Shown here piece after piece: positions 7,071 through 45,658 of a stretch of DNA of 64,000 bases (position 1 is the first letter of the stretch; every line of letters starts with the position of its first letter). The notes under the pieces are model-generated. The model ran no database searches and was not told where the DNA came from. It saw nothing but the letters and a program-made list of their open reading frames with translations. The position numbers and the translations under genes are program-made. The DNA comes from Elusimicrobia bacterium RIFOXYA2_FULL_39_19 (GTDB lineage Bacteria; Elusimicrobiota; Endomicrobiia; CG1-02-37-114; XYA2-FULL-39-19), in the NCBI GenBank assembly GCA_001800285.1, contig MGVC01000005.1:18476-82475 (forward strand), written 5' to 3'.

Positions 7071-8186
7071 TTATGGTGCAATATTATTTTCTGGCATGGG
7101 TAAACTTTCCAGCTTTTCTTCAGCCGGCACAACTTCCGGAACTGCTTGTATTTGTGGTTGCGTTTGGGTTTCCGGCGTTTTTTCTTCCTTTGCTTCTGGT
7201 ACAGTTGTCTGTACCAAATCTTTGCTTTTATTATATTTAAAAGGCATAGTCAGCGAAAGCCTGTAAGTATTTCCTAAATATCCGTACGGAGAAAAAGAGC
7301 AGTCCACATTTCCATAAGCACTGTTTATCCCAAACCCTGCAGACAACCCGCTGTCTGCCTGGTTGCGCCCGTTAAAACCAAGCCTTAGTTTTAGAATATG
7401 CAGTAAAGTATATTCAGCACCCATATTGATTATTAGCGGAACATCTTTTGAAAAGGTTGTATCAAAAGCAAAAAGCAGGTTTTGTTCAGGCAGAGTGTAT
7501 GCCGCGCCCAGTTTAAAATTTAACGGCAACTCTTCCTGCGTGCTGTAGAATTTTGCCCTTGTGCCAAGGTTTTGCAATACAGCTCCTGACTGAAAAACCT
7601 CATTGAATTTATACAAACATCCAATATCAATTGCTATTGCCTGTGTTTTTACAAAATCAATTCTTTCGTTTATATATTTCACGCTTAACCCGGCAGACAG
7701 CTTATCATTTAGTTGTTTTCCGCTGCCTAATGTCACCGCCATATCCTGTAAAAGATACTCACTCAGGCCATAGCCATTTCTATTTGAAATAGTAGTCCTT
7801 TGAATTGTGCCCCAGTCAACAATATTTATACTGCCGCCAAAACCAGTATTGGACACAAAGGCAAAATACCGCTGATTTATTTTCTGCAGCCAGAAAGTGT
7901 GCATAAAGTTTACTTCACTTCTTTTTATAACAGCCAAGCCGGCAGGATTATAGTACAAAGCATTAAAATCATCCGCTACGGCTGTAAAGGCCCCGCCCAT
8001 ACCTGCAGGCCTTATGCCTGTATCCAGCCTTAAAAAACCAAAAGGCGTAGTACCCGCACCTTCAGCAGACAAACGGATAGGCGCAGATAAAACACAGAAT
8101 ATACCGGCACAGAAAATCCAGAGCAGAACTCTGCTGTGTTTTCCTTTTAGAAATGAAAGTGTATTTTTTATAATTACCAGTTTCAT
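7071..8186 (-). CDS. PorV/PorQ-like outer-membrane beta-barrel protein
   Basis: Signal sequence followed by GFLRLDTGIRPAGMGGAFTAVADDFNALYYNPAGLA, which is the signature I associate with PorV-family barrels. The sequence alternates in beta-strand-like fashion down to an aromatic-rich end, followed by a Pro/Glu/Gln-rich tail. Its start codon overlaps the giant gene's stop codon (ATGA). Confidence 0.6.
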   Translation of the reverse strand: MKLVIIKNTLSFLKGKHSRVLLWIFCAGIFCVLSAPIRLSAEGAGTTPFGFLRLDTGIRPAGMGGAFTAVADDFNALYYNPAGLAVIKRSEVNFMHTFWLQKINQRYFAFVSNTGFGGSINIVDWGTIQRTTISNRNGYGLSEYLLQDMAVTLGSGKQLNDKLSAGLSVKYINERIDFVKTQAIAIDIGCLYKFNEVFQSGAVLQNLGTRAKFYSTQEELPLNFKLGAAYTLPEQNLLFAFDTTFSKDVPLIINMGAEYTLLHILKLRLGFNGRNQADSGLSAGFGINSAYGNVDCSFSPYGYLGNTYRLSLTMPFKYNKSKDLVQTTVPEAKEEKTPETQTQPQIQAVPEVVPAEEKLESLPMPENNIAP

Positions 8187-17100: not shown

Positions 17101-20100
17101 TGGATACCTCATAGTATAATTCTTTGCCTAGGCCGCCCACTTCACCATTGCTGTCGGTTGTAGTAGAAGTAATTACATTGCCGGAAGCATCTTTTATAGT
17201 TCCTGAAGAACCAAATACATCCACTACACTTAATACCGCGGAAATATTTGAACTTGAAACCTGGTTTTCATAAGAGTCGGCAATAAACGCTTTTACCTGC
17301 TGACGGTTAGGCACGCCGCCGGAGATGCCCGCTTTTACATAGATCGGGTCGGTCCACGGGCTTGGTATAGCAAATGCAAACTTGCTGGGGTCTCCCGGCC
17401 TTACTTCTATTACCGGTCTGTTTGAATATCCTGACCTATTGGCATCTATCAGGGAATCTGTGCTCTGGCGCCAGTTTATCCAGCGGGTACCAGCCTTTTT
17501 TAGTTGAATGGTAAATAAGTGTGAACCGGCATCTGCGTCAGTAAACACATAGTGTTCTCCGCCGCTGCCGGGTAGAGGTTCTGGATTCTGCAGTGAATTA
17601 TCAAAGTCCGTAGGAGCAATTTCTGCCAAGAACTGCACTTCACCGGTGTATCTGGTGCTTCCGGTAGAACATATATTGTGGTATCTGTCTTTTACATTTA
17701 TTCTTACATTGTAATCTGAACCAGCATAAGCCCAGGTAGAGCCGCGCACAGGGTCAATATAGCTTGTACCCTGCATGTAGTAGGCGGCGTCCGGCCATAT
17801 TCTTATCTGGCTGGATTCTTTAGAAGTATATTTTACAGCCGCGGTTGACCAGTCAACCGACACGCAGGTCCAGGAAGAAGAAGCAGTCAACGGCCTTACG
17901 CTGAAGGCTCTTGAACCGAAAGCCAAGCACTGTATGGTTGGCTCAGAATCCTGATAATCCCAGGTGGTTACCGTGCAGGAAGGCATATCTACACCTGACA
18001 TAATCCTGTTATACCAGATATCTGTTAATACAACATCTATGTTAAAGGCATCCCCGGCTGTATGCACAGTTGGCTGGGTATCGGTCCTGCCGTAAGGAGC
18101 AATGTTCCATTTTCCGGGAACGTGGGTTTCACCCGGCACCACCACAAGTAAAAATGCCGGCGAAGATGGATTTACTGTAAACTGCCTGCTGCTGACATCT
18201 GTAATATATCTCGGGTCAGAACCATCAACATCCTTGGTCCAGAGCATATGCCAGGTAGCAGCAGTTTTGAGCTGTATTTGAAAAGTATTGCTGGCGCTTA
18301 TGTCGCCGAGTGGTGACGTGGATGAATTGGCATCATAAGGGTCATTGGTTTCTACCGTCACTTCAGGCATGGTTATTCCGGGTAGTGACGGAAATATTCC
18401 TTTATTATAAGTATTGTAGTAGTTATCTACTAAGTTTACTGTTACTTCAAACACAGTACCGGCAGTCTGGGTTACCGGAGAACCTGTTTTACCGTTAGCA
18501 GTGCTAACATTTAAACCCCATGCCGGCGTTTCACCAGGAAGTATTATCTGGAGATGGTTCGGAGTGCCCGGTAGTACAGTGAAAGTGGATACGGTATAAT
18601 CCGGTGCACTGTTTGGATATTTTGTATAAGTACCATAAAGTTCTTCCGCAACTGCATAGTGGTAAGTGGCGGCACGTTTTAAACCAGTAGTGAAACTGGC
18701 TGTCTTGTAACCCGGGTCTGTACCGGTAATTGTTATCTGAGCTGGTTCTACATTATAAGGATCCGTAGGAGTGTATAGAACAATGGTTCCCTCTGCACCG
18801 GATACAATATTGAAGTTGCTGTCTGTAATGGCCACAGTAACATCAAATGGGGCACCAGCGGTTTGTTGTGATGGACTGCCTGTTTTACCATAAGGTGAGT
18901 TCATGTCAAAGTTTTGGCCTGGTAAAAGAACCAGAAGTTTTGAAGCTGTGTTGCTAACAACCGGGACCTTTGAGCTGGGCTGGGAATTAACCATAATTCC
19001 GGGATATCCCTCACCTTCCACCCAGCTAAATGCCGACATTCTTATACGCCAGCCGGTATTGCTGGATGTTGAAAAAACCCATTTTTCAGAATCATCTAAA
19101 ATATATTGTCCGTTTGAAACCCATATACTTCTCCCAGTTACCTGCGGGTCGTTAGGGTCACCGTCTGCTCCATCAGACATAAGTGTTAGAGTAGGATTTT
19201 CATCAGTCTGGTTATAACATTGGTCCAGGCATAAAACAGTTGTTTTAAAACCCACACCAGCAACCTGTGCTGTTGGGTTGGAAGCTTCCGTTTTTCCCGG
19301 TTGAGAGCCGGTAACTTTACCGTCAACATGGGTTTCACCCGGTACCAATATCTGAATTCTGTAGGGAACATTTGTAGTAATGGCTATGCTCTGGGTATAA
19401 TCATATTTATAATTACTGCAATAATCTGTAGTTGCTGTGATGATAGTATTTTTCTTTGTTACAAGCGTAATGCCAAATGTCGTAGTCCCGGAAAAAAGAG
19501 TTTTTGTACTGGGGTGCGTGTCATATAAATCATCGGTAATTATGCTGACATTTATTCCGGTAGTAGTTACTGAATTGTAATAGTCATCACATGCATCTAC
19601 GGTTACATTAAACGATTCTCCCGCTTTATGGCTGGTTGGATAATTATTGGACATTCTGCCTCTTGTAGAAATATTACCGGCATCCGGTAATTCCCCTGGA
19701 GCAAGAATTCTCAATCTTTTAGCACTTCCTGGAATTATGTTAACAATATTTGAATCATATGTACCCAGGCTTCCGGTTGCCCTAACTGTCCAGGTGGAAG
19801 CAGTATTCATCATTACGTTATTCCACACATTCTGTCCCATAGTTAAGCCCTGGCTTCTGGAATAACTACAATAAGGGTCTGTTACCGTTACAGACACCCC
19901 TCCCATTACAGCAGTGGAACATAAGTTATAATAATTATCCGTAACACGCACAGTTACAGGAAACACTACACCAGCTGTCTGAAAACTAACGCTATAATTT
20001 TTTCCTCCGGTTCCGTCACCAATTGGCTGCTGGGTTACATTTTCTCCATAAGGAGGCTTGCCGGGAGCAGGCACTTCATTCGGCAAGATTACATGGTAAC

Positions 20101-33623: not shown

Positions 33624-34343
33624 TTAGGCCTCGGTTTTTTCTATTTCTTTGGCAAGAATTACAGCTTCAGCTACGGCACGAAGGGTTTTACGGGCATCCA
33701 TACTTTTTTTCTGCAGCAGCCTGTAGGCATCTTCTTCAGAATGACCATACTGTTTCATAATGATACCTTTGGCTTTTTCTACAAGCTTGCGGGTTTCAAG
33801 CTCTTCTTTTAAAATATTTGATGTGACCAGCAGGTTCGCATTTTCTATAACTACGGCCGCCTGGTTTGCAACAGTTGTTAAGACAGCTATTTCTGAATCA
33901 GTAAACTTATGAAAAAATGAAGTATAACAATTTAAAGCTCCAATGGGTTTACCTTTTACGTCCAGCGGCACGCACAGCAAGGACTTTAAACCCAGTTTTT
34001 TTGCCATATCCTTAAATTTAAACTCCGGTTCATTTAAAACATCTAAAACCTGAATAGGTTTATTTTCCTTGAGTACTTTACCTGCAATGCCTTCCCCTAT
34101 TTTTAAAGAACCCTTTTTTATATATTCCTCACTCATGCTTTGGGTAGCTTTAATGTCCAGGGCTCCCTGCTTTACATCAAATAACATTATTGAACAGATC
34201 TCTGATTTCATTACCTGTGCGGTTACGGTGACAATAAGCTTTAAAATATCTTCCAAGTAAAGGTCTGATGTGATGGCTTTGCTGATTTTTGAGACAGCGT
34301 TAATGAAATCATTGTGGTCAGTCTTGTTTCTTGTTTTTTTCAT
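33624..34343 (-). CDS. GAF-ANTAR RNA-binding antitermination regulator
   Basis: Central GAF-like region and a C-terminal ANTAR signature, LETRKLVEKAKGIIMKQYGHSEEDAYRLLQKKSMDARKTLRAVAEAVI. The start overlaps the radical SAM gene's stop codon (ATGA). Confidence 0.8.
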   Translation of the reverse strand: MKKTRNKTDHNDFINAVSKISKAITSDLYLEDILKLIVTVTAQVMKSEICSIMLFDVKQGALDIKATQSMSEEYIKKGSLKIGEGIAGKVLKENKPIQVLDVLNEPEFKFKDMAKKLGLKSLLCVPLDVKGKPIGALNCYTSFFHKFTDSEIAVLTTVANQAAVVIENANLLVTSNILKEELETRKLVEKAKGIIMKQYGHSEEDAYRLLQKKSMDARKTLRAVAEAVILAKEIEKTEA

Positions 34344-35377
34344 TGTATTTTTGATTGTATTTCTGCAATTTTGCAGGCTGTCTTTGATTTTCCGGTTATT
34401 TTTCCTGTTTCAAGCAGCGCAATTCCCGGGCATCTTCTACACGCTTTAATGTTACTACATTTCAAACACTCTTTGCAATCTTTTGTACTGTATTTTCTAA
34501 GCCTTTTTGCTTTTTTTGATTTATGCCATATATTTCTGAAACTTTGATTTTTCAAATTTCCAAGCGGATATAATAACTGCAAACATGGATAAACAATTCC
34601 CTGCGGTGAAATACCGGCAAAAACTTTGCCTGCATTGCAAAACAAATCAGGAACATCCTGTAATGAAACATCTGTTGAAACTTCGTACTGGTTTATCAGA
34701 TATTTATTTAACTTTTTATCCGTATAAATGGTTTTAAGCTTTTCGGCGCTTAACTGAAACCTCTGGATTGTGCAGTCACCGTTATTTTGGGGGGCAAGGA
34801 CCGGGTCAAGCCTGTATTCAAACTTATTTTTTTTGGCAAATTTTATCAGCCATTTGTAATCGTTGAAGTTTATATTCAGAAGCGGCGCTTTAATTCTAAC
34901 CGGAACCTTGTATTTCTTTAATAATTTCAATGCAACAAGTGTTTTTTTAAAAGAATTGTTTTTTGCCGTTATCTGTTCATGACTTTTTTTTCTTCCGTAC
35001 AAACTTATCTCTACAGCGCTTAACCCGATTTCCGATAACATTTTTGCGTGTTCTTTTGTTATTAAAGTACCGTTTGAAAAAAGCCGGAGATCAAAATTTA
35101 ATTTCCTGGCGTAAGCGCATAATTCTAACAAGTCTTTGCGTAAAAATATCTCTCCACCGGTAAAACATAAGTACAGGCAACCGGCGCGGGCAAGCTTATC
35201 AAGGATTGTTTTTACTTCCTTCGTGTTTAATTCGCTTTTGTTTTGTTTTATCAGGTAGCAATGCAGGCATTTCAGGTTACATCTATGCGTAAGTTCAAAT
35301 ACGGTATAAAGCGGCAGGTTATTTTTATATGCAGCTTCTGTTAAACTGTTTGATGGGCTAATCATTTTGTATTTCAA
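34340..35377 (-). CDS. Radical SAM / SPASM-domain peptide-maturase-like enzyme
   Basis: CNLKCLHCY cluster motif. The C-terminal Cys-rich SPASM-like region reads CNAG..G.VYPC..., CKECLKCSNIKACRRCPG. Confidence 0.8.
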   Translation of the reverse strand: MKYKMISPSNSLTEAAYKNNLPLYTVFELTHRCNLKCLHCYLIKQNKSELNTKEVKTILDKLARAGCLYLCFTGGEIFLRKDLLELCAYARKLNFDLRLFSNGTLITKEHAKMLSEIGLSAVEISLYGRKKSHEQITAKNNSFKKTLVALKLLKKYKVPVRIKAPLLNINFNDYKWLIKFAKKNKFEYRLDPVLAPQNNGDCTIQRFQLSAEKLKTIYTDKKLNKYLINQYEVSTDVSLQDVPDLFCNAGKVFAGISPQGIVYPCLQLLYPLGNLKNQSFRNIWHKSKKAKRLRKYSTKDCKECLKCSNIKACRRCPGIALLETGKITGKSKTACKIAEIQSKIQ

Positions 35378-35624
35378 TCAAACCTTTTTCTTTCAATTCT
35401 GAAATAAACCCTGTCACATCATCAGCAGCTACTGTTTTTTCAACATCATATTCCTTTAACAGTAAATCAACCAGTTTGGCGGCACTGCACTTTTTATGCA
35501 GTTTCTGCCAGATAAAAGCGCCCACCTCATCCAATGAATGCAAACAAGATGTTCCTGTGTTTACAATATAGGCCTTGCCGTCAATAACTCTCCAGGCAAT
35601 ATTTTTTGAATGGCTTATTAGCAT
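35358..35624 (-). CDS. PqqD-family peptide-binding (RRE) protein
   Basis: 88 aa; ..YIVNTGTSCLHSLDEVGAFIWQKL...LVDLLLKEYDV....DVTGFISELKEKGLI is the typical PqqD pattern. It overlaps both neighbouring genes. Confidence 0.75.
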   Translation of the reverse strand: MLISHSKNIAWRVIDGKAYIVNTGTSCLHSLDEVGAFIWQKLHKKCSAAKLVDLLLKEYDVEKTVAADDVTGFISELKEKGLIEIQND

Positions 35625-36412
35625 AATTTCTCCGCAGAAATATTTTTAGGAAAAAATAGTGTTTGAAAAATCAGCTTGTTTTTCATTGAGAGAATTGTAT
35701 CTATCATTTTACTTATCAATTTTGGGTCTTTACTGAAAAACAGTATGTTGGGAAGCAGTTTTTTTATAAATGCCGGGCTGAATTCATTTTTTACAAAATA
35801 CTTTTTGCTCTTTTGTATAAAACAAATCTTTTTAAGCTTCAGGGTCAGATTTGTTTTTCCGGGTTTCAGTTCTCCCCAAAATGGTGTACTGGAAGCTTTT
35901 ATTATTCCGTTAATATTTTGCACAAGAACCAGCTCATCAGAAAGTACAGCTGAAGGTTTAAACTTTTTTGCTATGGTTGACTTGCCTGCATTTGTTTTAC
36001 CAATAAATAAATTAGCAGCATTTCTGAATTTAATACCGGAAGCATGCACTAAAAAACCGTTATTTATTACAGAAAACACCGAAAAAACAACTCTCAGCAG
36101 GGAATCAAGCGAATATATGTTTTCCCTTAGTTGGGCAACAGCCTTTAATTTAGAAGTGTCAAAACTTAATTGAAAATCATTTCTTGAAAAACAATGAACA
36201 CCTTTTATGTTTTTATATGTTACTTCCTTATTCTGATTCAATTTATCAGGAACAAATACTAATTTTAAATCAAGAACTTTCTGTTTTTTGAATGATCTTA
36301 CAAAAAATGGCCCATATCTTTCCGTTATTTTATTTAGGATACTACGATTTACAGAATTATTTATCTGTAAATTTAATGCAAGTTTTGTACCTAAAAGAAT
36401 TTTATAATTCAC
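35618..36412 (-). CDS. HprK-related kinase-like P-loop protein
   Basis: LVHASGIKFRNAANLFIGKTNAGKSTIA resembles the HPr kinase C-terminal nucleotide-binding segment. It has a GTG start. Its context, with PqqD and rSAM/SPASM genes, supports the call. Confidence 0.55.
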   Translation of the reverse strand: MNYKILLGTKLALNLQINNSVNRSILNKITERYGPFFVRSFKKQKVLDLKLVFVPDKLNQNKEVTYKNIKGVHCFSRNDFQLSFDTSKLKAVAQLRENIYSLDSLLRVVFSVFSVINNGFLVHASGIKFRNAANLFIGKTNAGKSTIAKKFKPSAVLSDELVLVQNINGIIKASSTPFWGELKPGKTNLTLKLKKICFIQKSKKYFVKNEFSPAFIKKLLPNILFFSKDPKLISKMIDTILSMKNKLIFQTLFFPKNISAEKLC

Positions 36413-36441: not shown

Positions 36442-37554
36442 TCAGATGGTTTTTACCCACCATCTTCTGGCTTTCAGTTCCAGTGCGAGTTTTTTATCTT
36501 CTAATTTCAATTTTGTTTCATCTACAGCTTCCGTTATATAGATAACGCTGTTTTTGCTTAAATCCACCAGCTTTTCTGTTGGCACTCTTTTATTTTCACT
36601 GTCAATTACTATTTTAAGTTTGGGCCTTGTGGGTAGTCCGGGGTTTGAGCCTACAACCCGGGCTATTTCGTCAGTATTTACCCGGACATAACTGCCTATA
36701 GGATAAAGTGAAACCTTTTCTATGAATAACTTTACCAGATTCATATCAAAATTCATGTCAGCCATATCAATCATTTTCTTAAGCGCGTCATGTGACAGTA
36801 TGCTTTCTCTCCAGGACCGCGGATGGGTAAATGCTTCAAACACGTCAGCTACGCTGATAATTTTTGACATTATGTCTATTTCTTCTCCGGAAAGACCTTT
36901 TGGATAACCGGCGCCGTCTCTGCGTTCGTGTACCTGGGATATAATTACGGAAACTGCGGTTTTGGTTTGCGGAGACATTATTACATTTTCCAGCAATTGT
37001 TTATTATACATAGTGTGTTTTTTGATTTCGCTGAATTCTGAACCATTTACCTTGCCTTGTTTTGCCGCAAGTTCTACAACTTTAAGCATTCCGATGTCAT
37101 GCAGGAATGCTGAAATGGTAAGTTTTTCCAGCTGTTCTGAAGAATAGCCGTAGGCAAAACCAAGGGCTGTAGAAAGAATAGCGGTATTAACACTGTGGCT
37201 ATGCAGATATAAGTCCGGCGTAGTATATCTGCACATGGCAATCAGTTCATCATTGTTGGCTACTATTAAAGCTATTATTTTTCTTGCTACATTTAAAAGC
37301 GGGTTTATGTCTACTTTGTTTTTTTCAATATTCAGAAGGAACTTTCTTTGCGTATCAATACCTTCCGTATAGACTTTTTCCGCTGAATCTACACGGTGTA
37401 TCTCCTGAACAAACTGTACCTTGTCCAGTTGGGGCTCTTCGGTTTTTTCTTCAACAATTTCTTCGGGTTCTAATTCGGATACTTCTTGAGGGGTTAAATC
37501 TTCAGTGGATTTATTTTGGACGGATTTTTTCTTAAGTATGTCTGAAAGTCGCAT
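36442..37554 (-). CDS. HD-GYP domain protein, predicted c-di-GMP phosphodiesterase
   Basis: FLHDIGM (HD) and VHERRDGAGYPKGL (HHExxDGxGYP-type) motifs. Confidence 0.8.
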   Translation of the reverse strand: MRLSDILKKKSVQNKSTEDLTPQEVSELEPEEIVEEKTEEPQLDKVQFVQEIHRVDSAEKVYTEGIDTQRKFLLNIEKNKVDINPLLNVARKIIALIVANNDELIAMCRYTTPDLYLHSHSVNTAILSTALGFAYGYSSEQLEKLTISAFLHDIGMLKVVELAAKQGKVNGSEFSEIKKHTMYNKQLLENVIMSPQTKTAVSVIISQVHERRDGAGYPKGLSGEEIDIMSKIISVADVFEAFTHPRSWRESILSHDALKKMIDMADMNFDMNLVKLFIEKVSLYPIGSYVRVNTDEIARVVGSNPGLPTRPKLKIVIDSENKRVPTEKLVDLSKNSVIYITEAVDETKLKLEDKKLALELKARRWWVKTI

Positions 37555-37588: not shown

Positions 37589-37594
37589 TTTATC

Positions 37595-37617
37595 TGAAGG
37601 CAGATTTCTGCACTTCA
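37595..37617 (-). terminator. Hairpin overlapping the histidine-kinase stop codon; weak terminator candidate
   Basis: The minus strand reads TGAAGtGCAG-AAAT-CTGCcTTCA. The downstream sequence is A/T-rich but has no clean U tract. Confidence 0.3.
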
Positions 37618-39687
37618 ACCGTCGTAGGGCAGTTCAATGATAAAGGTAGTTCCTTTCTTTAGTTCGCTTTCAATTTCTATATTCCCGCCATGCTCTTTAA
37701 TAATTCTGAAACTTGTAGATAAACCAAGCCCGGTACCTTTTGTTTTGGTAGTAAAAAATGGTTTGAATAACTGTTTTATGTTTTCTTTGGAAATACCAGG
37801 CCCGGTGTCTTTTACTTTTATCTTGAGATTTTCTTTGTTACTGTCTTCCAGCATTATACTGATAATTCCCTGGCCGGGAATAGCCTGTATGGCATTTAAT
37901 ATAATATTCATTAAAACTTGTTTTATCTGGGCGGGGTCTGCATAAATAGTAATGTCTTTTCTCGAATATTCTTTGACTACTTTTATATTTTTCTTTGCCG
38001 CTTCATGGCTTAAAAGCATAAGAATATTTTCAATTATATAATCTACATTTATTCTTTCAAACTGGTTCTTTTGAAGCCTGCTATAATCTGAAAGGCTATT
38101 CAATATTGTTTCCAAATGATCCAGTTCCTGAGGCACAATACTGCTGAACTTTTCCCGGTACTCTTTATCTTCAAATTTCCGAGTTAGAAGCTGAGTAAAA
38201 GTTTTTATAGCTACCAGCGGATTTTTTATTTCATGTACTACTGTGGAAGCCAGTGTGCCCAATGCTACCATTTTATCCGCCTGATACATGCTTTTTTCAA
38301 AATTACGCAATTGTTCGGTAAGCCTGGCGTTTTCTATAGCAACTGAAGACTGGGATGCTATTGAAGAAATAAAATCCAGGTCCTGCCTTAAAAAAGCATC
38401 TTCCGACATTTTTTCTCCAACACAAATTATTCCTATAAGTTCTTTATTTAATTTTACGGGAACCATGAGCATACTTTTAAGTTTAAATATTTTTCTTTCA
38501 AATTCACCTTTAATTTCATTAAGTTCGTTAAAAAATATTTTGTTTTTGTGTTTTTCAAACCAGCTTGTAATGTAGTCACCTTTTTCAAAACACACTTCTT
38601 CACTGTTAAGTAGATTAAAATTTCTGGACATTCTTATTGTATATTTTTCATTTTCTTCATTAATAAGAAGAATGGAAATCTTTTTTACAAACAGGGTATT
38701 GGTTATGGTATCAGCTATATGATCCAGTAAGGGGCCCAGCACCATCAAAGAACTTAATTTGTCGCTGAAGGCAGATAATATTTTCTGAGAATCATACTTT
38801 GTCTTGAAAAACAGTTTATCTACTATGTTTTGAAGCCAATTACGCACAGGAACAAAACCTGCAGCAACAATAATAGCAGTAGCCGTATTAACAAGAATTG
38901 AATTAAACCTTAAATATTCCAGGCCAAATGCCAGAGAAACGGCAACTATTAGTGTATATATACCTGCTACTATGGTAGTCAGTGCTGTATAAACTATAGC
39001 GCGTTTAATGACTACGCGGATATCAAAAGCCTGGTATTTTAGAATGGAATAAGCAATAAGCCCGGTCCAGATAATATTTATAAATCCGCTAACAGGATAA
39101 ATTTCAAATCCAAGAGAAAGAGCAAACAATGTAAATCCGAAAAAAACAAAAAGACTGATACCGATAAAAAAATATTTTAACTGGTTTTTAACCATGAATG
39201 ATTCTGTAACTTTAAAGGTCTTAACAAGATGGGCTAATCCATAGGATATCCAGAAAGCAACATTTAATGCAGACAGGATGTAAAGCAGAGTAGGTTTTGG
39301 TGCATAGGTCACACCTACTCTAATGTATTCTTTTGTCATTAACCCAAAAAAACCCAATATTGTAAAAAGTATTCCTATACCGTAGGACAGGTATATTAGC
39401 TTTTTGTTTCTTTCACTTATATTTCTTGATAATATCAGCATAAAATGGAATCCAGCTGCTGGTCCTAACAAGAAACCAAATCTGAATGTATCTGCCCATG
39501 TTTTGGCTAATACAGCATTTGGCATGACGTATAGTCCAAATAAGTCAAAAGACCACATTGCAATACAAAACGCAAAAAAAGCAAATATTCTGTTAAGCGG
39601 GCTTTTTGTATTTTTTTGAAACACAAAAACAGACAGGACTAAATTGACTATTGTTGAAGTTAACCAGGGAATGCAATGTATGTTCAT
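37615..39687 (-). CDS. Sensor histidine kinase (multi-TM N-terminus, GAF-like region, HisKA, HATPase)
   Basis: ~7 N-terminal TM helices, H-box VVHEIKNPL, N-box NAIQA, G-boxes DTGPGI and GTGLGLS. Confidence 0.85.
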   Translation of the reverse strand: MNIHCIPWLTSTIVNLVLSVFVFQKNTKSPLNRIFAFFAFCIAMWSFDLFGLYVMPNAVLAKTWADTFRFGFLLGPAAGFHFMLILSRNISERNKKLIYLSYGIGILFTILGFFGLMTKEYIRVGVTYAPKPTLLYILSALNVAFWISYGLAHLVKTFKVTESFMVKNQLKYFFIGISLFVFFGFTLFALSLGFEIYPVSGFINIIWTGLIAYSILKYQAFDIRVVIKRAIVYTALTTIVAGIYTLIVAVSLAFGLEYLRFNSILVNTATAIIVAAGFVPVRNWLQNIVDKLFFKTKYDSQKILSAFSDKLSSLMVLGPLLDHIADTITNTLFVKKISILLINEENEKYTIRMSRNFNLLNSEEVCFEKGDYITSWFEKHKNKIFFNELNEIKGEFERKIFKLKSMLMVPVKLNKELIGIICVGEKMSEDAFLRQDLDFISSIASQSSVAIENARLTEQLRNFEKSMYQADKMVALGTLASTVVHEIKNPLVAIKTFTQLLTRKFEDKEYREKFSSIVPQELDHLETILNSLSDYSRLQKNQFERINVDYIIENILMLLSHEAAKKNIKVVKEYSRKDITIYADPAQIKQVLMNIILNAIQAIPGQGIISIMLEDSNKENLKIKVKDTGPGISKENIKQLFKPFFTTKTKGTGLGLSTSFRIIKEHGGNIEIESELKKGTTFIIELPYDG

Positions 39688-39787
39688 AAATTATTAATTT
39701 TATAAAATATAAATTTCAAACCTTAAATAGTAGTATATCAAATGAACATGCATTTTCAAAACATCAGCAAATATCTTCTTTACTTGA

Positions 39788-41125
39788 CTAATATTTGTAC
39801 GCCTCTTTTATTGACATATACAACTGTTCATAGATGGGTTTTGAAACCGGGACCGACTTACCAGCACTTCCTTTTGTATAGGTTCTTAAGTACAAATCCG
39901 CCAAGCATTCATAAAATTTTTCTCTTGGTAATTTCGTAGGAAATATTGAATGAATAAAATCAAAAAGATTATAATTGTAAGTCACAAATTCTTTGTACCT
40001 TTCATGATACAAATCTGTTCCGGGTAACGGCGTCAGGACAGAAAATATCGGGTGCGGAAGATTCATTTTTTCAACATAATCACCTAACTCTATAAAATCC
40101 TTTTCCAAGTAATCGGGATTTACAATGAACTGGGCAACTACTGTAATATTATTTTGGTGCAAAATATTTATAGCTTCTTCATTGTTTTTTACTGAATTGC
40201 TTTTGTTAAAAACCTTTAGTTCTTCATCCCTGAAAGACTCAATACCCAACAGTACCATTTCCGCTCCAATCTCTTTCCATTTTGCTATTAAATCGGGATG
40301 TTTTACTATAGTATCTGACCTGGCAATAAGTTTGTATGTCTTTTTTATTCCTTTTTCTTTTAGTAATTCGTACAGTTTTTCTGCTCTGTTAACATCATGC
40401 AGAAAATTATCATCACAAATACTTATATAAGGTTCTTCTATAGTTTGAATCTCTTTAACAATACTTTCTGCGCTTCTTAATCTATACCGGCCCCTTTCAT
40501 GCTTCCAGACTGCACAGAAATTACATCTAAACGGGCAACCTCTTGAAGTTAGTAAAGATGCTACCGGCCTCCAGGCTGCCCTGAAATATTTTTCACGGTA
40601 TTTTTTGGTTAAATGTCTTACTGGGAAGGGCATATCGTCAAGATTTTCCATAAAATCTCTTTCCTGAGTTATTTTAAGTTTACAATTTTCCTGAATACCT
40701 ATACCCTTTATTTTTGAAAAATCTTTTTTAAATTCTACTGCATCAACTATTTCACTGAATGTCGCCTGGCCTTCACCAATCACAACAAAATCTATGCAGG
40801 CTTTATTAAAATCCTCAGGAATTAGTGTAGGGTGGTGGCCGCCTACTACAGTAATAACATCTTTATTGAATTTTTTAATGTTTTCAAATATTTCACAAGC
40901 CGCATATACATCGGGAGTTAAAGCTGTTATGCCTACAATATCTGGTTTAAATGTGTCCAGGTCTTCTTTCAATAGTTTATCTATCCTCATATCCAGGATT
41001 TTAACGTTATGTTTATCTAAAACACCTGCTGCAATTGTTTCCAGAGCTAAAGGTTCTGGCAAATATAACACCCCGGATCCTACTAAATTTTCATTTAACG
41101 GCGGTTGAATAAGTAAAATGTTCAT
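39788..41125 (-). CDS. B12-binding-domain radical SAM enzyme (class B-like)
   Basis: N-terminal Rossmann-like B12-binding-type region (MNILLIQPP...DIVGITALT...VVGGHHPT) followed by TSRGCPFRCNFCAV. Confidence 0.8.
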   Translation of the reverse strand: MNILLIQPPLNENLVGSGVLYLPEPLALETIAAGVLDKHNVKILDMRIDKLLKEDLDTFKPDIVGITALTPDVYAACEIFENIKKFNKDVITVVGGHHPTLIPEDFNKACIDFVVIGEGQATFSEIVDAVEFKKDFSKIKGIGIQENCKLKITQERDFMENLDDMPFPVRHLTKKYREKYFRAAWRPVASLLTSRGCPFRCNFCAVWKHERGRYRLRSAESIVKEIQTIEEPYISICDDNFLHDVNRAEKLYELLKEKGIKKTYKLIARSDTIVKHPDLIAKWKEIGAEMVLLGIESFRDEELKVFNKSNSVKNNEEAINILHQNNITVVAQFIVNPDYLEKDFIELGDYVEKMNLPHPIFSVLTPLPGTDLYHERYKEFVTYNYNLFDFIHSIFPTKLPREKFYECLADLYLRTYTKGSAGKSVPVSKPIYEQLYMSIKEAYKY

Positions 41126-41926
41126 TTAATTCTCCTGTAATAAATTTATTTCCAAACATTTTCTGTTAAAAAGATCTACTAACGAACAGTTCGGTACTAC
41201 TATCGGTTTTCTTTTGTCTAATAACATTAAAACAGTTTCAAGCACCAACAGAGATCCCGCTAAGGAACATATAGGGCTTATTACTGAAGGAGTTATATCC
41301 CTGTTTGTCAGCTCAACTATTTTGTTGTGAGGAATATAATCGGGAAGTTTCACGCTGAGTTTTTTGAATATTTTATAAAAATCCGGCTCGGTGCCGGCAT
41401 CAACACCAAAAAACTTTTCCATTGTCAAACCTTTTGGGTCAAACACCAGCAATGGACTGCTATAAGCAATAGCACCTGACAAAATAACATAAAGATTTTT
41501 CTCCCGGGCCTTCGGATAAAGGGCCATACGGGCTTCAAAAGTGAAAAACTCTATGGCATCTATTACCAGATTGGCGCCCTGCAAAAACTCATCCACATTA
41601 TCTTTATTTACTCCTTCAGAGAAAACATCTACTTTAATTTCTGGATTGATATCTCTAACTATTTCAGCTATTACTTCCGCTTTTTTTCTGTTTAAGGTTT
41701 TAATGGAAGAACCAAACTGCCTGTTAAAATCTGTTGCTGAAAAAACTTCAGGGTCTGCGATTTTTATATGCCCCACACCCAATCGGGCAAGGCGTTCTGC
41801 CGGAAAGCCCCCTACTCCACCGACTCCCGCTATGCAGACAGTAGAATTTTTTAGTTTTTCCTGTTCTGCTTCTGTAAGCAGGCCTATGTTTCTGTTGGTA
41901 ATTTCAGTATATGCGGGTTTATTCAT
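41126..41926 (-). CDS. ThiF/MoeB/HesA-family E1-like adenylyltransferase
   Basis: VCIAGVGGVGGFPAERLARLGVGHIKIADPEVFSATDFNRQ nucleotide-binding motif. Confidence 0.75.
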   Translation of the reverse strand: MNKPAYTEITNRNIGLLTEAEQEKLKNSTVCIAGVGGVGGFPAERLARLGVGHIKIADPEVFSATDFNRQFGSSIKTLNRKKAEVIAEIVRDINPEIKVDVFSEGVNKDNVDEFLQGANLVIDAIEFFTFEARMALYPKAREKNLYVILSGAIAYSSPLLVFDPKGLTMEKFFGVDAGTEPDFYKIFKKLSVKLPDYIPHNKIVELTNRDITPSVISPICSLAGSLLVLETVLMLLDKRKPIVVPNCSLVDLFNRKCLEINLLQEN

Positions 41927-42483
41927 AGTATAAAAGGAATCAGGGCATACGTTTCTTTACGGTATTGCCTGTATTCATCCCCCAATTTAGAAATTAGTGC
42001 TTTTTCTTCAAACGGAATTCTGGAATAAATAGCAAGCACCATCAGTACAGCTCCTGAGGAAAGCATGTAATATGCATTTGCTATCAAAGCTACCGCTATC
42101 ACATCAATTACATTGCTTAAATAAACGGGATGCCTTAAAAACTTATACGGGCCTTTTCTAATTACCCTATGGTTTTCCCGTATTTCTATATCAGCGCTCC
42201 AGAATTCTGATAAAGTTGTTGCTCCCCACCTTTTGAGAAAAAAACGCGCAACCCACAACACCATACCTATGGCAGCAACAGTATAATTTATCTGCCTGTT
42301 TACTACCAGAAATTCCACAACTACCAGTACAAGGTAACTGGAATAAGCAATACCCAGAAAGTTAATGGTCCACTTGTCGCGGATTTCTCCTTTAGTTTTT
42401 TTCTTTTCATAAAGACTTATTTCAAAATACCTAAGCAAAATCATAAAAACCATAAACAACGCAAAAAAAATCTGATAATTCAT
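41923..42483 (-). CDS. ICMT/PEMT-like integral-membrane methyltransferase
   Basis: 186 aa, ~5 TM, with VIRKGPYKFLRHPVYLSNVI typical of the isoprenylcysteine carboxyl methyltransferase family. Confidence 0.65.
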   Translation of the reverse strand: MNYQIFFALFMVFMILLRYFEISLYEKKKTKGEIRDKWTINFLGIAYSSYLVLVVVEFLVVNRQINYTVAAIGMVLWVARFFLKRWGATTLSEFWSADIEIRENHRVIRKGPYKFLRHPVYLSNVIDVIAVALIANAYYMLSSGAVLMVLAIYSRIPFEEKALISKLGDEYRQYRKETYALIPFIL

Positions 42484-42499
42484 GTCTTTTTTCTCCTTT

Positions 42500-43897
42500 T
42501 TAGAATAATCTTAAATTCATCAACTTACCTGAAAACAAATTTGATATTTTAAACTGCGAGGTTTTGCACAGCCCTCCACCGCTATTTCCGTACATTTCAG
42601 GAAAAATACCGGCATTAATAGCCGCAGTATTTTTTACACCCTGATAATCAACTCTTTTTACTATCATGGAGATATTATTCCCGCCTAAACCAAAAGAATT
42701 AATAAGAGCTGAATTAACTTCGTTTCTTCGGCTTTTATTAGGCACATAATCCAAATCACAGTCAGGATCTTCCTCTTCATAATTAATGGTTGGCGGCAGA
42801 TGGTTTTCCTGTATAGACATCAATGTTGCCGCCATTTGAATAGCGCCTGTAGAGGCAAGCGGCTGGCCTATCATGGACTTTATAGAGCTTACAGGTATAT
42901 CATAAGCAGATTCCCCGAAAACTTCTTTTATAGCCATAGTTTCTCTTTTATCCGACACCTGGGAGGAACTGCCATGCGCATTTACATAATCTATGTCTTC
43001 TGGCTCCAACCCGGATTCATCCAATGCAAGATTTATAGCTTTTACAACTTCCTTGCCTGTCGGTTCCATTTTAAAAATATTATATCCATCATTTGTTACA
43101 CCGTAACCTGAAACTTCCGCATACATCTTTGCTTTGCGTTTCATAGCAAATTCATAACTTTCCATTACTACCACTCCTGCCCCTTCTGATAAAATATATC
43201 CTTCTCTGGATTTTTCAAAAGGCCTGCTAACAGTTTTCGGGTTTTCTTTTCCTTTTCCTTTTGCCAGCACCTGAGCAGCACAGAACGTATCAAAAGCAAA
43301 CGGAGTAATAGGTGTTTCACTTCCTCCGGCTATTACCACATCGGCCCGGCCGTTTTTTATTAAATCATAACCATACGCTATTGCATTTAAAGCTGAAGAA
43401 CAACCGGTGCAAATGGTCATGTTAGGGCCTTTTATACGAAATTCCTGGGCTATTACACCCAGCGCTGTATTGTTGTTTATTACGCTTACACATAAAGGAT
43501 TAATACCGTTTACACCTTTTTCTCTGAAAACATCATACTGTTGTTCATTTAGTTCCTGGCCCCCAATAGAAGTAGCAAAAGATATACCTGTCCGGTAAGA
43601 CAAGTCCTCATCAGAACCGTCAAGTTTTAATGAAGCGTCATCTACTGCCATCCTGGTTGCCGCAAGGGCAAACTGCGCAAACCGGCTTAACCGCCGGCCC
43701 AATTTATAATCCATATACTTTGAAGCATCAAAATCTTTTACTTCTCCAGCTACCTGGCTGGGATATTCGCTTGGGTCAAATCTTGTAACCCTGCCAATTC
43801 CTGACTCACCTGAAACTGTTGAATTCCAAAACTCATCCTTACCTATGCCATTTGGTGCAATTACACCAATACCTGTAATAACTACTCTTTTGCTCAT
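42500..43897 (-). CDS. FabF-like beta-ketoacyl synthase with a noncanonical active-site triad and a C-terminal tail
   Basis: MSKRVVITGIGVIAPNG start. Active-site Cys in TGCSS (C166), His in NAHGSS (H308), but KSMIGQPLASTG where FabF/FabB carry KSMxGHxLGAAG (Q345 in place of the second His). About 55 extra C-terminal residues follow SFGLGGNN. Confidence 0.8.
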   Translation of the reverse strand: MSKRVVITGIGVIAPNGIGKDEFWNSTVSGESGIGRVTRFDPSEYPSQVAGEVKDFDASKYMDYKLGRRLSRFAQFALAATRMAVDDASLKLDGSDEDLSYRTGISFATSIGGQELNEQQYDVFREKGVNGINPLCVSVINNNTALGVIAQEFRIKGPNMTICTGCSSALNAIAYGYDLIKNGRADVVIAGGSETPITPFAFDTFCAAQVLAKGKGKENPKTVSRPFEKSREGYILSEGAGVVVMESYEFAMKRKAKMYAEVSGYGVTNDGYNIFKMEPTGKEVVKAINLALDESGLEPEDIDYVNAHGSSSQVSDKRETMAIKEVFGESAYDIPVSSIKSMIGQPLASTGAIQMAATLMSIQENHLPPTINYEEEDPDCDLDYVPNKSRRNEVNSALINSFGLGGNNISMIVKRVDYQGVKNTAAINAGIFPEMYGNSGGGLCKTSQFKISNLFSGKLMNLRLF

Positions 43898-43959
43898 TCT
43901 GTCTTCACCTTTCCTTTAAGTATTTTAAATCCAATGAGAAGCGTGTTAAAACAGTATGC

Positions 43960-43974
43960 GCAATTAGTTTGCCA
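43960..43974 (-). promoter_or_regulatory. Sigma54 (-24/-12) promoter candidate
   Basis: Minus strand TGGCAA-ACTAA-TTGC, matching the spacing of TGGCAC-N5-TTGC. It lies ~63 nt upstream of the ketosynthase ATG. Confidence 0.55.
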
Positions 43975-43993
43975 GGCACCTTCCTATATAAAC

Positions 43994-44047
43994 AAAAAAA
44001 GAGAAGCATACCTATTTGTGCATCAAGTACAAATAGGTATGCTTCTC
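43994..44047 (-). terminator. Strong intrinsic terminator after the sigma54 activator gene (structurally bidirectional)
   Basis: Perfect 19 bp stem GAGAAGCATACCTATTTGT / ACAAATAGGTATGCTTCTC (44001-44047) with a 9 nt loop. It is followed on the minus strand by TTTTTTT. Confidence 0.8.
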
Positions 44048-44073
44048 AAAATGTTTTTAAAACTCTAAAACTT

Positions 44074-45465
44074 CTATTTTGCGGATTGTATTCCAAGTAT
44101 CTTCATCTTATATATGAGGGTGTTTCTGTGAATACCCATTAATTTTGCGGCTTTTGTCTGGTTCCAGTTAACTTTTTCCAATATCCCTATGACAAACTTC
44201 TTTTCATACTGGCCGCAGACATAATTTACCAGGGACCTTTTTTCTTCGGGAACTGTTTCTTTATCAAACTCTTCAGGCATAAAAATATCTAATGGAAACC
44301 TGTTGTGTGTTATCACGCTATCTTTGCTTAATGCCACCATTCTTTCCACAATGTTTTTAAGTTCCCGCACATTTCCCGGCCAGTCATAATTTTTCAATAT
44401 GTTCATGGCCTGTTTGGAAATACTTGTGATATTCTTTGAAAACTTTTTATTGAAAAACTTTATGTAATAATCAATCAGAAGAGAAAGGTCTTTCTTCCTT
44501 TCACGTAACGGCGGAAGATTTATAGGAACTACGTTTAAGCGGTAATATAAATCTTCCCTGAACTTTCCATCCTTGATAGCTTTTTTAATATCCATATTTG
44601 TAGCTGAAATAATACGGGCATTTATTTTTAAATCTTTTATACCGCCTACGCGCTGAAATTCGCGGGTTTCAATTACTCTAAGCAGTTTTGACTGCAGGTT
44701 CATGGGCAGGGTGCCTATTTCATCAAGAAAAACAGTACCGTTATCCGCTAGTTCAAACTTCCCAAGTTTCTGGGAAATTGCATCTGTAAATGCGCCTTTT
44801 TCATGTCCGAAAAGCTCGCTTTCAATAAGGTTTTCTGGTATGGACGCGCAATCAACTACCACGAAAGGTCCATTCTTCCTGTTACTGTTATAGTGAAGGG
44901 CTTTTGCCACCAAATCTTTTCCCGTACCACTTTCTCCCAGAACCATTACATTTGAATCTGTTTTACACATTTCAAATACAAGTTCAAAGATTCTTTTCAT
45001 GGGTTCGCTGTTGCCGATTATATTTTCAAACGCAGTCGGTTTTATTTCAGATCTCAGATAAACTACTTCTTTATTGAGCCTTTTTCTTTCAAACGCTCTT
45101 TCTACAGACAAAAGCATTTCGTCGGCATCAAAAGGTTTCATGATATAGTCATAAGCGCCAAGTTTCATGGCTTCAATAGCGGTTTTCACTGTTTTTACGG
45201 CAGTAACTACGATTATTTCTACATCAGAATTAATGGCCCTTATTCTCTTTAAGGTTTCAAGGCCGTCCATACCTTCCATTAAAATATCAAGAATTATCAA
45301 ATCAACATTCTGTTTATTTACTACATCAATAGCGGCCGGGCCGCTGTTTACACCCAAAACATTGTACTTATCCAGCAAAACCTTGAATGTTTCAACAACA
45401 TTTACTTCATCGTCAACTACCATAACAACCAGCGAATCTTTGTCTAACAACTTCTTGTTTTCCAT
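44074..45465 (-). CDS. Sigma54-dependent response regulator (REC, AAA+, Fis-type HTH), NtrC family
   Basis: REC domain (DDEV...DLIILDILMEGMDG), Walker A GESGTGKD, ESELFGHEKGAFTDA (GAFTGA-type loop), and a C-terminal HTH QTKAAKLMGIHRNTLIYKM. Confidence 0.9.
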   Translation of the reverse strand: MENKKLLDKDSLVVMVVDDEVNVVETFKVLLDKYNVLGVNSGPAAIDVVNKQNVDLIILDILMEGMDGLETLKRIRAINSDVEIIVVTAVKTVKTAIEAMKLGAYDYIMKPFDADEMLLSVERAFERKRLNKEVVYLRSEIKPTAFENIIGNSEPMKRIFELVFEMCKTDSNVMVLGESGTGKDLVAKALHYNSNRKNGPFVVVDCASIPENLIESELFGHEKGAFTDAISQKLGKFELADNGTVFLDEIGTLPMNLQSKLLRVIETREFQRVGGIKDLKINARIISATNMDIKKAIKDGKFREDLYYRLNVVPINLPPLRERKKDLSLLIDYYIKFFNKKFSKNITSISKQAMNILKNYDWPGNVRELKNIVERMVALSKDSVITHNRFPLDIFMPEEFDKETVPEEKRSLVNYVCGQYEKKFVIGILEKVNWNQTKAAKLMGIHRNTLIYKMKILGIQSAK

Positions 45466-45604
45466 AATAATCTCCTAGATTTGTACATTAATTTATGCAA
45501 TGATTATACCTTATTTGCCTATGTTTTTCAAGTATTCCAAATTTATCCAACCGCTTCTTTTAATAAATATTTTAAATATTTATTTCATTAAATATATATA
45601 ATAA

Positions 45605-45633: not shown

Positions 45634-45658
45634 AATTGAGAAAGGCGGGAAACTAAGG

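Follow-up and report, generated by a model that had tools for sequence, protein, structure and literature searches.

Fatty-acid-derived quorum-sensing circuits include those of diffusible signal factor (DSF; RpfF, RpfC and the HD-GYP protein RpfG), cholerae autoinducer 1 (CAI-1; CqsA, CqsS and LuxO, with sigma-54) and 3-hydroxypalmitic acid methyl ester (3-OH-PAME; the methyltransferase PhcB and PhcS). The sensor kinase PrsK and the regulator PrsR (TIGR02916/TIGR02915) form a further described pair. Here, a locus carrying relatives of that pair was analyzed in a 64,000-nt stretch of contig MGVC01000005.1 (positions 18,476 to 82,475) from Elusimicrobia bacterium RIFOXYA2_FULL_39_19, referred to below as the window. 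The host is uncultivated and its genome was assembled from a groundwater metagenome. The locus encodes a FabF-like ketosynthase (KS), an ICMT-type methyltransferase, a ThiF-like adenylating enzyme and a cobalamin-binding (B12) radical S-adenosylmethionine (SAM) enzyme, with an NtrC-type activator upstream and a seven-transmembrane (7TM) sensor histidine kinase downstream. It is a member of a conserved cassette family under predicted sigma-54 and two-component control. Its assignment as a biosynthetic cassette for what would be a tailored lipid-like molecule is well supported.

The first-pass annotation had matched this enzyme combination to no known pathway and had proposed a conditionally induced lipid or small-molecule pathway. 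The proposal was judged to be supported, and neither the curated families of NCBIfam nor the literature gave a match to the cassette. No cassette protein had an equivalog-level NCBIfam match; only generic Pfam domains were recognized. Searches of the open-access literature returned nothing on the enzyme combination, on a KS with a Cys-His-Gln active site, on an association of ThiF, FeeM and 7TM proteins, or on ladderane-type clusters in Elusimicrobia. The only B12 radical SAM enzymes named in the Elusimicrobia genome paper are those next to a nitrogenase paralog, at another locus. The cassette is apparently undescribed; every domain in it is already known and its regulatory logic has precedents, and what is new is the enzyme combination, the Cys-His-Gln KS clade and the ThiF-FeeM-7TM association.

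Layout, control and conservation of the cassette

All features of the locus lie on the minus strand and are listed in the direction of transcription.

44074..45465 (-): NtrC-type sigma-54 activator with receiver (REC; Response_reg), Sigma54_activat (E 4.9e-70) and HTH_8 domains (Pfam)
Spacer of 176 nt (-) between the regulator and KS genes, holding the hairpin and the sigma-54 element
44001..44047 (-): perfect 19-bp hairpin with T-run, resembling an intrinsic terminator (sequence reading and hairpin scoring)
43960..43974 (-): sigma-54 -24/-12 element TGGCAAACTAATTGC, 62 nt before the KS start codon
42500..43897 (-): FabF-like KS with N- and C-terminal ketoacyl-synt domains (Pfam)
41923..42483 (-): ICMT/PEMT-family integral-membrane SAM methyltransferase (Pfam ICMT and PEMT)
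41126..41926 (-): ThiF/E1-fold adenylating enzyme of 266 aa (Pfam ThiF, E 5e-39)
39788..41125 (-): class B (cobalamin-binding) radical SAM enzyme, orthogroup A (Pfam B12-binding and Radical_SAM)
37615..39687 (-): PrsK-like sensor histidine kinase of 690 residues (Pfam HisKA_7TM, GAF, HisKA and HATPase_c)
36442..37554 (-): HD-GYP-type (HD_5) protein directly 3' of the kinase gene (Pfam HD_5, E 5e-25)

The domain assignments of the four biosynthetic genes were confirmed with Pfam, and the gaps of 16, -4 and 0 nt between them were found as first described. A cassette of four genes had been proposed; the four genes are present, but the unit runs past 39788 into the kinase gene (37615-39687). The radical SAM and kinase genes are 100 nt apart, with no terminator-like site between them in a scan used descriptively only, as the counts from the sigma-70 promoter and terminator scans were no higher than in shuffled sequence. 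The HD-GYP protein is a candidate cyclic di-GMP (c-di-GMP) phosphodiesterase and a possible signaling output, and its membership in the unit is tentative; in other loci its position is filled by single-domain REC or PilZ genes. As the first-pass annotation had stated, the cassette has no acyl carrier protein (ACP): tblastn of the 64-kb window gave no match to an ACP, and none to a second KS, FeeM, GH3 or rpoN.

The perfect 19-bp stem reported 3' of the activator gene was present, with arms GAGAAGCATACCTATTTGT-(loop)-ACAAATAGGTATGCTTCTC followed by a T-run. The TGGCAA-N5-TTGC (-24/-12) element was likewise present, as TGGCAAACTAATTGC at 43974..43960. TGGCA-N6-TTGC had a single match in the window and about one was expected from shuffled sequence (both strands together), showing that the single occurrence is not significant by count. 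The chance that the sole copy would land in the 176-nt spacer on the correct strand was approximately 0.0015, as estimated from the count expectation. In each of the seven loci with an available spacer between regulator and biosynthetic genes (the window and six related loci, L003, L047, L048, L049, L050 and L002), that spacer contained a GG-N10-GC element, 19-96 nt before the start codon of the first biosynthetic gene; six of the seven had the strict TGGCA-N6-TTGC form. The promoter argument rests on position and conservation, not on count. An NtrC-type activator was encoded directly upstream in the window, L003, L047, L048, L049 and L050.

The apex of the hairpin (44031..44017) is the palindrome TGTAC-N5-GCACA. 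In the window, L003 and L049, a TGT[GA]C-N5-G[CT]ACA site precedes the -24 element by 57-124 nt, and the background rate of the palindrome was 0.016 per kb per strand. From its recurrence at this position, the palindrome may be the upstream binding site of the activator, and the hairpin may thus combine the roles of terminator and enhancer site. In L003 (482-1543), L047 (5492-6607) and L048 (6287-7417), the gene directly upstream of the activator encodes a short sigma-54-like protein of 353-376 aa, with Sigma54_DBD as its sole recognized domain; the window has no such gene there. Possibly, the protein is a dedicated sigma-54 paralogue in truncated form.

The first-pass annotation had made its four-gene set depend on synteny elsewhere, and this was found. 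L020, a JGI metagenome contig, has the same order of KS, ICMT, ThiF and radical SAM genes, with identities of 81% (KS, part present), 51% (ICMT), 61% (ThiF) and 62% (radical SAM); a further radical SAM-like gene and a 7TM-GAF kinase gene (42-51%) follow. An expanded version occurs in the Elusimicrobia contig L003, in the order sigma-54-like, NtrC, radical SAM, KS, radical SAM, ICMT, ThiF, two radical SAM, 7TM-GAF kinase and REC. In L001/L002 and L010, the KS gene is followed by one or two unknown genes, ThiF, zero or two radical SAM genes and the 7TM kinase. Two of these, L002 (1915-4352) and L010 (683-1654), have in place of ICMT a conserved protein of roughly 320 aa that matched nothing in Pfam; L002 encodes in addition a protein of 484 aa whose PP-loop ATPase signature is weak (E about 0.01) and resembles argininosuccinate or diphthamide synthase. 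Three loci sampled via the KS lack ThiF: L047 (sigma-54-like, NtrC, KS, two radical SAM, ICMT, radical SAM, kinase), L048 (sigma-54-like, NtrC, KS, ICMT, radical SAM, kinase) and L049 (NtrC, KS, ICMT, four radical SAM, kinase). The Nitrospirae contig L050 carries NtrC, REC, KS, two unknown genes, an outer-membrane channel for hydrophobic compounds (Phenol_MetA_deg) and the start of a B12-domain gene. Gene order was conserved in at least eight loci besides the window. The conserved core consists of the NtrC activator, the sigma-54 promoter, the KS, the ICMT-type enzyme, one to four B12 radical SAM enzymes and the 7TM kinase, and the family extends over Elusimicrobia, a Nitrospirae metagenome-assembled genome (MAG) and unclassified relatives.

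Enzymes and sensor kinase

The KS was about 47% identical to Bacillus subtilis FabF over residues 2-415 (read from the alignment), with the Cys nucleophile, first His and Lys retained. Gln replaces the second catalytic His (KSMIGQPL), leaving the Cys-His-His triad incomplete, and the gatekeeper Phe of the GFGG loop is Leu (NSFGLGG). The Gln is common to the syntenic orthologs. Among the 120 best database matches, Cys-His-Lys-Gln was present in all of the top 73 or so, at identities of at least about 50%, with L, Q, M, A or V at the gate; the named members of this group are from Elusimicrobia, Omnitrophica and Nitrospirae. Canonical Cys-His-Lys-His-Phe sequences first appeared below about 50% identity. 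The KS scored 465.8 bits against the fabF model TIGR03150, just under the cut-off of 493.75, and passed the broader subfamily NF005589 (beta-ketoacyl-ACP synthase II; 446.6 bits against 387); its relatives are publicly annotated as FabF. The enzyme had been called atypical and expected not to group with a housekeeping FabF beside acpP, and this was borne out by the Cys-His-Gln clade, the missing Phe gate and the absence of acpP nearby: no AcpP-like sequence was found in the window by tblastn, and the neighbors are the ICMT, ThiF and radical SAM genes. On its active-site residues, the KS is placed in a distinct clade and is not a housekeeping FabF. The 50-residue C-terminal tail (GNSGGGLCK...) was considered as an E1 substrate or a conserved extension and was rejected, as the tail is not conserved and those of the orthologs are wholly different.

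In the mechanism of beta-ketoacyl-ACP synthases, the second His stabilizes the malonyl-ACP enolate, and Asn fills this role in FabH and in enzymes of the chalcone-synthase type. Since Asn can do the work of His there, Gln could do likewise here, and by this analogy the KS is plausibly a working yet specialized condensing enzyme or acyltransferase. For the question of what the second catalytic histidine does, the Cys-His-Gln clade is a natural experiment.

The ICMT-type protein exceeded the Pfam gathering thresholds for PF04140 (61.2 bits against 24) and for PF04191 (PEMT; 40.8 against 25), matched Methanosarcina ICMT (4A2N) over its full length (E 3e-15) and showed about five hydrophobic segments, indicating a multi-pass membrane protein. 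It remained below the protein-S-isoprenylcysteine O-methyltransferase equivalog NF040696 (95.6 bits; cut-off 160). Its gene adjoins or is near the KS gene in L003, L020, L047, L048 and L049. Known ICMT/PEMT members methylate lipophilic substrates at a carboxylate, phosphate, thiol or headgroup amine.

The radical SAM enzyme matched PF02310 (B12-binding) with 66 bits and PF04055 with 76.5 bits, and its CxxxCxxC motif is CPFRCNFC, starting at residue 197. Its nearest NCBIfam family was the hopanoid C-3 methylase HpnR (TIGR04367; 239 bits against a cut-off of 650), followed by BchE (176 bits); ApyD and the C-methyltransferase family of ribosomally synthesized and post-translationally modified peptides (RiPPs) gave 72-94 bits. 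OxsB, TokK and CysS were its neighbors in the PDB. The cassette radical SAM enzymes fall into three orthogroups, A (about 445 aa), B (about 555 aa) and C (455-484 aa with DUF4070), which occur as A in the window, B in L048, A+B+C in L047, A+B+C+C in L049 and B+B+C with another enzyme in L003. Such locus-specific combinations resemble the pattern expected of tailoring enzymes that diversify a scaffold. The window enzyme was rejected as a ThiF-specific partner, as orthogroup A also occurs in L047 and L049, both without ThiF.

The ThiF-like protein (PF00899, 134 bits) has intact adenylation motifs, with G34xGGxG (G34-G39), D58, N68-R69-Q70, K82 and D123 invariant; its sequence is 100% identical to a database protein of RIFOXYA2_FULL_39_19. 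It has no CxxC zinc site and no RiPP recognition element (RRE), peptide-clamp or tRNA-binding extension. Its best NCBIfam match was PRK08223 (221 bits; cut-off 266), and it stayed below the equivalogs ThiF (83.5 against 275), MoeB (63.8 against 376) and TcdA (76 against 304). TcdA was also the best PDB sequence match (72 bits). The AlphaFold2 model (pLDDT 90.9) matched the ThiF and MoeB folds and was closest to AclA (PDB 9EGB; TM-score 0.79-0.83), with the peptide-modifying enzymes MccB and PaaA among its fold neighbors. A ubiquitin-like, ThiS or MoaD partner or a precursor peptide encoded nearby was rejected, as no small GG-ending open reading frame (ORF) or precursor-sized gene was present on the right strand in 17 loci (the window and 16 related loci). 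The protein was also rejected as the anchor of the whole system, given the three KS-type loci without it; ThiF is an accessory, optional member of the cassette.

Relatives of the ThiF protein were located with a 10-sequence alignment, which gave 10 genome loci and 27 metagenome loci and limits the census. Of the 20 loci whose downstream sequence extended for 3.5 kb or more, 15 had a homologous 7TM sensor next to the ThiF relative (33-43% identity); the sources were Saccharibacteria, a Gammaproteobacteria MAG, Dehalococcoidia and Syntrophomonas, besides many metagenome contigs. Between the two genes were FeeM/LuxI-like N-acyl-amino-acid synthases, methyltransferase-FeeM fusions, GH3 amido synthetases, and PEMT-like or class I methyltransferases. 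In the Dehalococcoidia and Syntrophomonas loci, the 7TM-GAF sensor is fused to an HD-GYP output instead of a kinase. Cluster representatives of the ThiF family included FeeM-ThiF, PilZ-FeeM-ThiF, FeeM-ThiF-nitroreductase and several ThiF-methyltransferase fusions. Further multi-domain relatives were methyltransferase-ThiF-nitroreductase and ThiF-nitroreductase proteins; the multi-domain set comprises P0241, P0250, P0292, P0359, P0383, P0277 and P0295. The association of FeeM, E1 fold and nitroreductase recalls cyclodehydratase/dehydrogenase pairs and suggests azlactone- or oxazole-type chemistry on N-acyl amino acids. From these neighborhoods and fusions, the ThiF family appears to work on lipid-like small molecules in signaling contexts and apparently not on ubiquitin-like proteins.

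A ThiF-type gene was also found inside the PEP-CTERM/exopolysaccharide (EPS) locus of Malonomonas rubra (L004). There, at 8001-13890, a ThiF relative is followed by DUF1329, DUF1302 and an MMPL/RND-type transporter, with a FeeM-like gene and a PEP-CTERM protein nearby; this module may represent lipid export tied to the ThiF enzyme family. The Rubrivivax PEP-CTERM/EPS locus likewise contains a ThiF-type gene (PMC3684757). According to the citation of Craig et al. 2011 in PMC7293339, N-acyl-amino-acid synthase genes are linked to PEP-CTERM/exosortase loci, the type of system of which PrsK and PrsR are part.

The kinase aligned end to end with PrsK (TIGR02916) at 202 bits, below the cut-off of 300, and had about seven hydrophobic segments in its first 280 residues. 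The regulator was PrsR-like, with 415 bits against PEP_resp_reg (cut-off 502.6), and scored 455 bits against the AtoC model (cut-off 714). The two proteins are paralogues of PrsK and PrsR, not members of those families. Kinase genes lay downstream of the enzymes in L001, L003, L010, L020, L047, L048 and L049, and regulator orthologs occupied the equivalent position in L003, L047, L048, L049 and L050. The kinase is a conserved partner of the regulator and belongs to the system; it is the proposed receptor.

Candidate product and its possible receptor

Our preferred explanation, which we hold tentatively, is that the enzymes make a tailored lipophilic acyl product that is sensed by the adjacent kinase, closing a sigma-54 feed-forward loop. 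The KS would condense or extend an acyl thioester from the cell's own ACP or coenzyme A pool, with its Gln taking the Asn role of Cys-His-Asn condensing enzymes. The B12 radical SAM enzyme would modify an unactivated carbon, most likely by C-methylation, and the ICMT-type enzyme would methylate a membrane-embedded polar group, most likely a carboxylate. The ThiF-like enzyme would adenylate a carboxylate, leading to ester or amide formation or cyclization. The product would partition into the membrane, where the 7TM domain of the kinase would sense it; the kinase would phosphorylate the activator and the sigma-54 promoter would fire. The result would be a self-reinforcing circuit of signal synthase and receptor, with the HD-GYP protein as a possible c-di-GMP output.

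The product would most likely be the ligand of the sensor, given that differing enzyme sets are accompanied by one kind of 7TM sensor, whose output is sometimes non-transcriptional. A sensor with an HD-GYP output cannot regulate transcription of the enzymes, which favors a relation of ligand and receptor. Several points weigh on the other side. The organism is uncultivated, and the window cassette encodes no exporter. A kinase and an NtrC output are found in every KS-type locus, so that sensing of a product and sensing of the membrane state are inseparable for this subtype. The FeeM- and GH3-type loci share only 35-43% (ThiF) and about 25-30% (sensors) identity with the window, and function may not transfer. 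As ThiF is optional, arguments built on it say little on the core of KS, ICMT and radical SAM enzymes. Since the cassette includes no ACP, reductase or dehydratase of its own, what the KS accepts and forms can only be guessed. The ICMT-type and ThiF-like enzymes would each need a carboxylate.

The main rival is remodeling of membrane lipids, a possible but doubtful explanation by our estimate. The KS, with its altered gate, the B12 radical SAM enzyme or enzymes and the PEMT/ICMT enzyme would alter the acyl chains, the headgroups or both in bulk envelope lipids. The 7TM kinase would sense the physical state of the membrane (thickness, fluidity or stress) and switch on the operon via NtrC and sigma-54, as DesK/DesR do with a desaturase. 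The HpnR hopanoid C-3 methylase as nearest curated relative of the radical SAM enzyme fits this explanation, as does the inclusion of phospholipid N-methyltransferases in the PEMT family, and B12 radical SAM enzymes are well known as lipid modifiers (PMC13459092). A multi-pass sensor adjoining lipid enzymes, a transcriptional NtrC output in all KS-type loci and the lack of an exporter in the window are also consistent with it. However, close relatives carry one to four radical SAM enzymes in varied combinations, with ThiF optional, which looks like product diversification. The homologous 7TM sensors beside ThiF, FeeM and GH3 often have an HD-GYP output and no transcription regulator, and in the ThiF family there are fusions to PilZ and to FeeM domains that resemble autoinducer synthases. 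The cassette also has no glycerolipid acyltransferase. Under membrane remodeling, sensor-controlled B12-dependent lipid methylation would matter for methyl-branched lipid biomarkers in anoxic sediments and groundwater.

It is rather unlikely that the locus is a specialized-metabolite cluster, for an antimicrobial or surfactant lipid or a small polyketide-like acid, with a two-component system answering an unrelated external cue. Tailoring enzyme combinations do differ by locus, the KS is atypical, the Nitrospirae locus L050 has its channel for hydrophobic compounds, and related N-acyl amino acids are known as surfactants and antibiotics (PMC7293339). However, the 7TM sensor follows differing enzyme sets across phyla, an association too strict for a generic regulator. 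No resistance gene, transporter, ACP or chain-processing enzyme is present in the cassette, and a single KS has a very limited scaffold capacity.

A still less probable explanation makes the ThiF-like protein a true E1 or a peptide modifier, which would adenylate the C terminus of a ubiquitin-like protein, a sulfur carrier or a ribosomal peptide encoded elsewhere; the B12 radical SAM and ICMT enzymes would modify the peptide and the KS would lipidate it. One possible source is a SynChlorMet-like (Scm-like) cassette of ScmC, PqqD and radical SAM/SPASM proteins, 1 kb downstream. It lies at 33624-36412 on the minus strand, directly downstream of the HD-GYP gene.

36412..35618 (-): ScmC (P-loop, HprK-like)
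About 35624..35358 (-): PqqD-family protein
35377..34340 (-): radical SAM/SPASM enzyme
34343..33624 (-): GAF-ANTAR RNA-binding regulator

Besides this nearby PqqD/SPASM cassette, the E1 fold with intact ATP-binding motifs, the fold neighbors MccB and PaaA, which modify peptides, and the methylation of RiPPs by B12 radical SAM enzymes (ApyD and the RiPP C-methyltransferase models, 72-94 bits) agree with a peptide substrate. However, no ubiquitin-like, ThiS-like, GG-ending or precursor-sized ORF was found on the right strand in the 17 loci, and the gaps of 16, -4 and 0 nt leave no room for one inside the operon. The ThiF-like protein lacks an RRE or peptide-clamp extension and the CxxC zinc site, and members of its family are fused to small-molecule enzymes. 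None of the syntenic loci L003, L020 and L047-L049 carries the Scm-like cassette, which is therefore probably a separate unit.

A chance neighborhood of a housekeeping FabF, unrelated genes and a fortuitous promoter motif is extremely improbable, for although the KS passes the beta-ketoacyl-ACP synthase II subfamily model, has relatives annotated as FabF and stands behind a motif whose count equals the chance prediction per 64 kb, this explanation is refuted by synteny and motif conservation, with gene order kept in at least eight other loci, the promoter element in seven of seven, an active-site substitution that defines the whole KS clade, and reading frames that overlap or abut in tight coupling.

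Returning to the product as ligand of the kinase, two broader proposals can be made jointly, which we regard as possible although the odds are against them. The first is that the cassette encodes a lipid autoinducer system of a new class, found in uncultivated phyla; its signal would be an acyl molecule with a C-methyl group and a modified carboxyl group, made by the KS, ICMT-type and B12 radical SAM enzymes and read directly by a 7TM domain of the PrsK family. The second is that HisKA_7TM sensors, including PrsK, are receptors for lipids made by adjacent enzymes; the FeeM-linked ThiF-like enzymes would then carry out a TcdA-like, ATP-dependent activation or cyclization of N-acyl amino acids. 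If the product is the ligand, the cassettes would represent a widespread, unstudied family of lipid signal and receptor pairs. It would span Elusimicrobia and a Nitrospirae MAG, with ThiF-type modules in Dehalococcoidia, Saccharibacteria, Syntrophomonas and a Gammaproteobacteria MAG, groups in which almost nothing is known of cell-cell or envelope signaling. It would also give the first testable idea of the stimulus of PrsK-type 7TM kinases, a question open since the PEP-CTERM/exosortase system was described. Judging from the FeeM-ThiF-nitroreductase fusions, the E1 fold may have a new use in the lipid chemistry of small molecules.

Surroundings and comparison with known systems

The cassette sits among ordinary genes, with glmS, carAB, purF, pyrG and a Liv transporter upstream. 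G+C content was 0.325-0.389 over 34001-46000 of the window, against 0.38-0.46 for most of the rest. This low-G+C stretch covers the cassette, the kinase and HD-GYP genes and the Scm-like genes, and no mobile-element genes were seen beside it. A long operon at 23373-33490 (minus strand) encodes a membrane-bound, Mrp-linked group 4 [NiFe] hydrogenase or a complex-I-like module, with Mbh/Mnh subunits, NuoH-, NuoB-, NuoC- and NuoD-like subunits and ferredoxin-type proteins. An ORF of giant size (4244 residues; 20917..8183, minus strand) had no Pfam match and is followed by a PorV/FadL/UPF0164-like outer-membrane protein (8186..7071, minus strand); the two may be a very large surface or secreted protein and a channel or shuttle that serves it. 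At 2848-5498 (minus strand) lie the genes for two HydE/HydG-type radical SAM/BATS proteins. In one of them (4026..2848), the radical SAM core carries a HupF/HypC domain at its N terminus, an unusual union of a NiFe-hydrogenase chaperone domain with a maturase-type enzyme.

Among the individual enzymes, the KS shares with housekeeping FabF the thiolase fold, the length and the conserved Cys, first His and Lys. It differs in the Gln at the second His, the Leu gate, the sigma-54 promoter and the absence of an acpP/fab neighborhood. The ThiF-like protein has the fold and the intact adenylation motifs of TcdA (the ct6A dehydratase), MccB, PaaA and AclA, which are E1-fold enzymes working without a ubiquitin-like protein, whereas identity to these is 18-22% and no tRNA- or peptide-binding extension is present. 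TcdA activates the carboxylate of an N-acylated amino acid moiety, and TcdA-type chemistry would by analogy be expected beside FeeM-type synthases.

Ladderane-type and other lipid clusters (TIGR04072; PMC13459092) also combine a FabF-like KS with a cobalamin-type radical SAM enzyme presumed to act on acyl chains. Unlike them, the cassette has no dedicated ACP, FabZ or phytoene-desaturase-like gene and has two-component flanks and an ICMT-type enzyme; the window radical SAM enzyme reached 60 bits against the TIGR04072 cut-off of 360.

The PrsK/PrsR system is closer in its regulatory parts. The kinase has the same architecture of 7TM, GAF, HisKA and HATPase domains, and both regulators are sigma-54 activators of the NtrC type. 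Each pair has a known or predicted lipid-making enzyme linked to it genetically, ThiF-type genes occur in PEP-CTERM loci, and relatives of the window ThiF lie beside FeeM and 7TM kinases. However, the window kinase and regulator are both under the equivalog cut-offs, and the enzyme set is KS, ICMT and B12 radical SAM instead of FeeM. No exosortase, PEP-CTERM protein, PrsT or EPS gene was seen among the annotated genes of the window.

The enzymes of the DSF, CAI-1 and 3-OH-PAME circuits are not homologous to those of the cassette, which has no crotonase, pyridoxal phosphate-dependent acyltransferase or PhcB-type methyltransferase. The regulator scored 359 bits against LuxO (cut-off 800), and the 7TM domain is of the HisKA_7TM/PrsK family, unlike CqsS and RpfC. 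The likeness is one of design. In these circuits the gene for a lipid-signal synthase adjoins that of a multi-pass sensor kinase, as the genes for the putative synthase do in the cassette. Output runs, or in the cassette would run, through a LuxO-like NtrC-type sigma-54 activator, an HD-GYP c-di-GMP phosphodiesterase or both, and in the cassette, as in these circuits, a methyl ester or methyl branch would serve as the mark of specificity.

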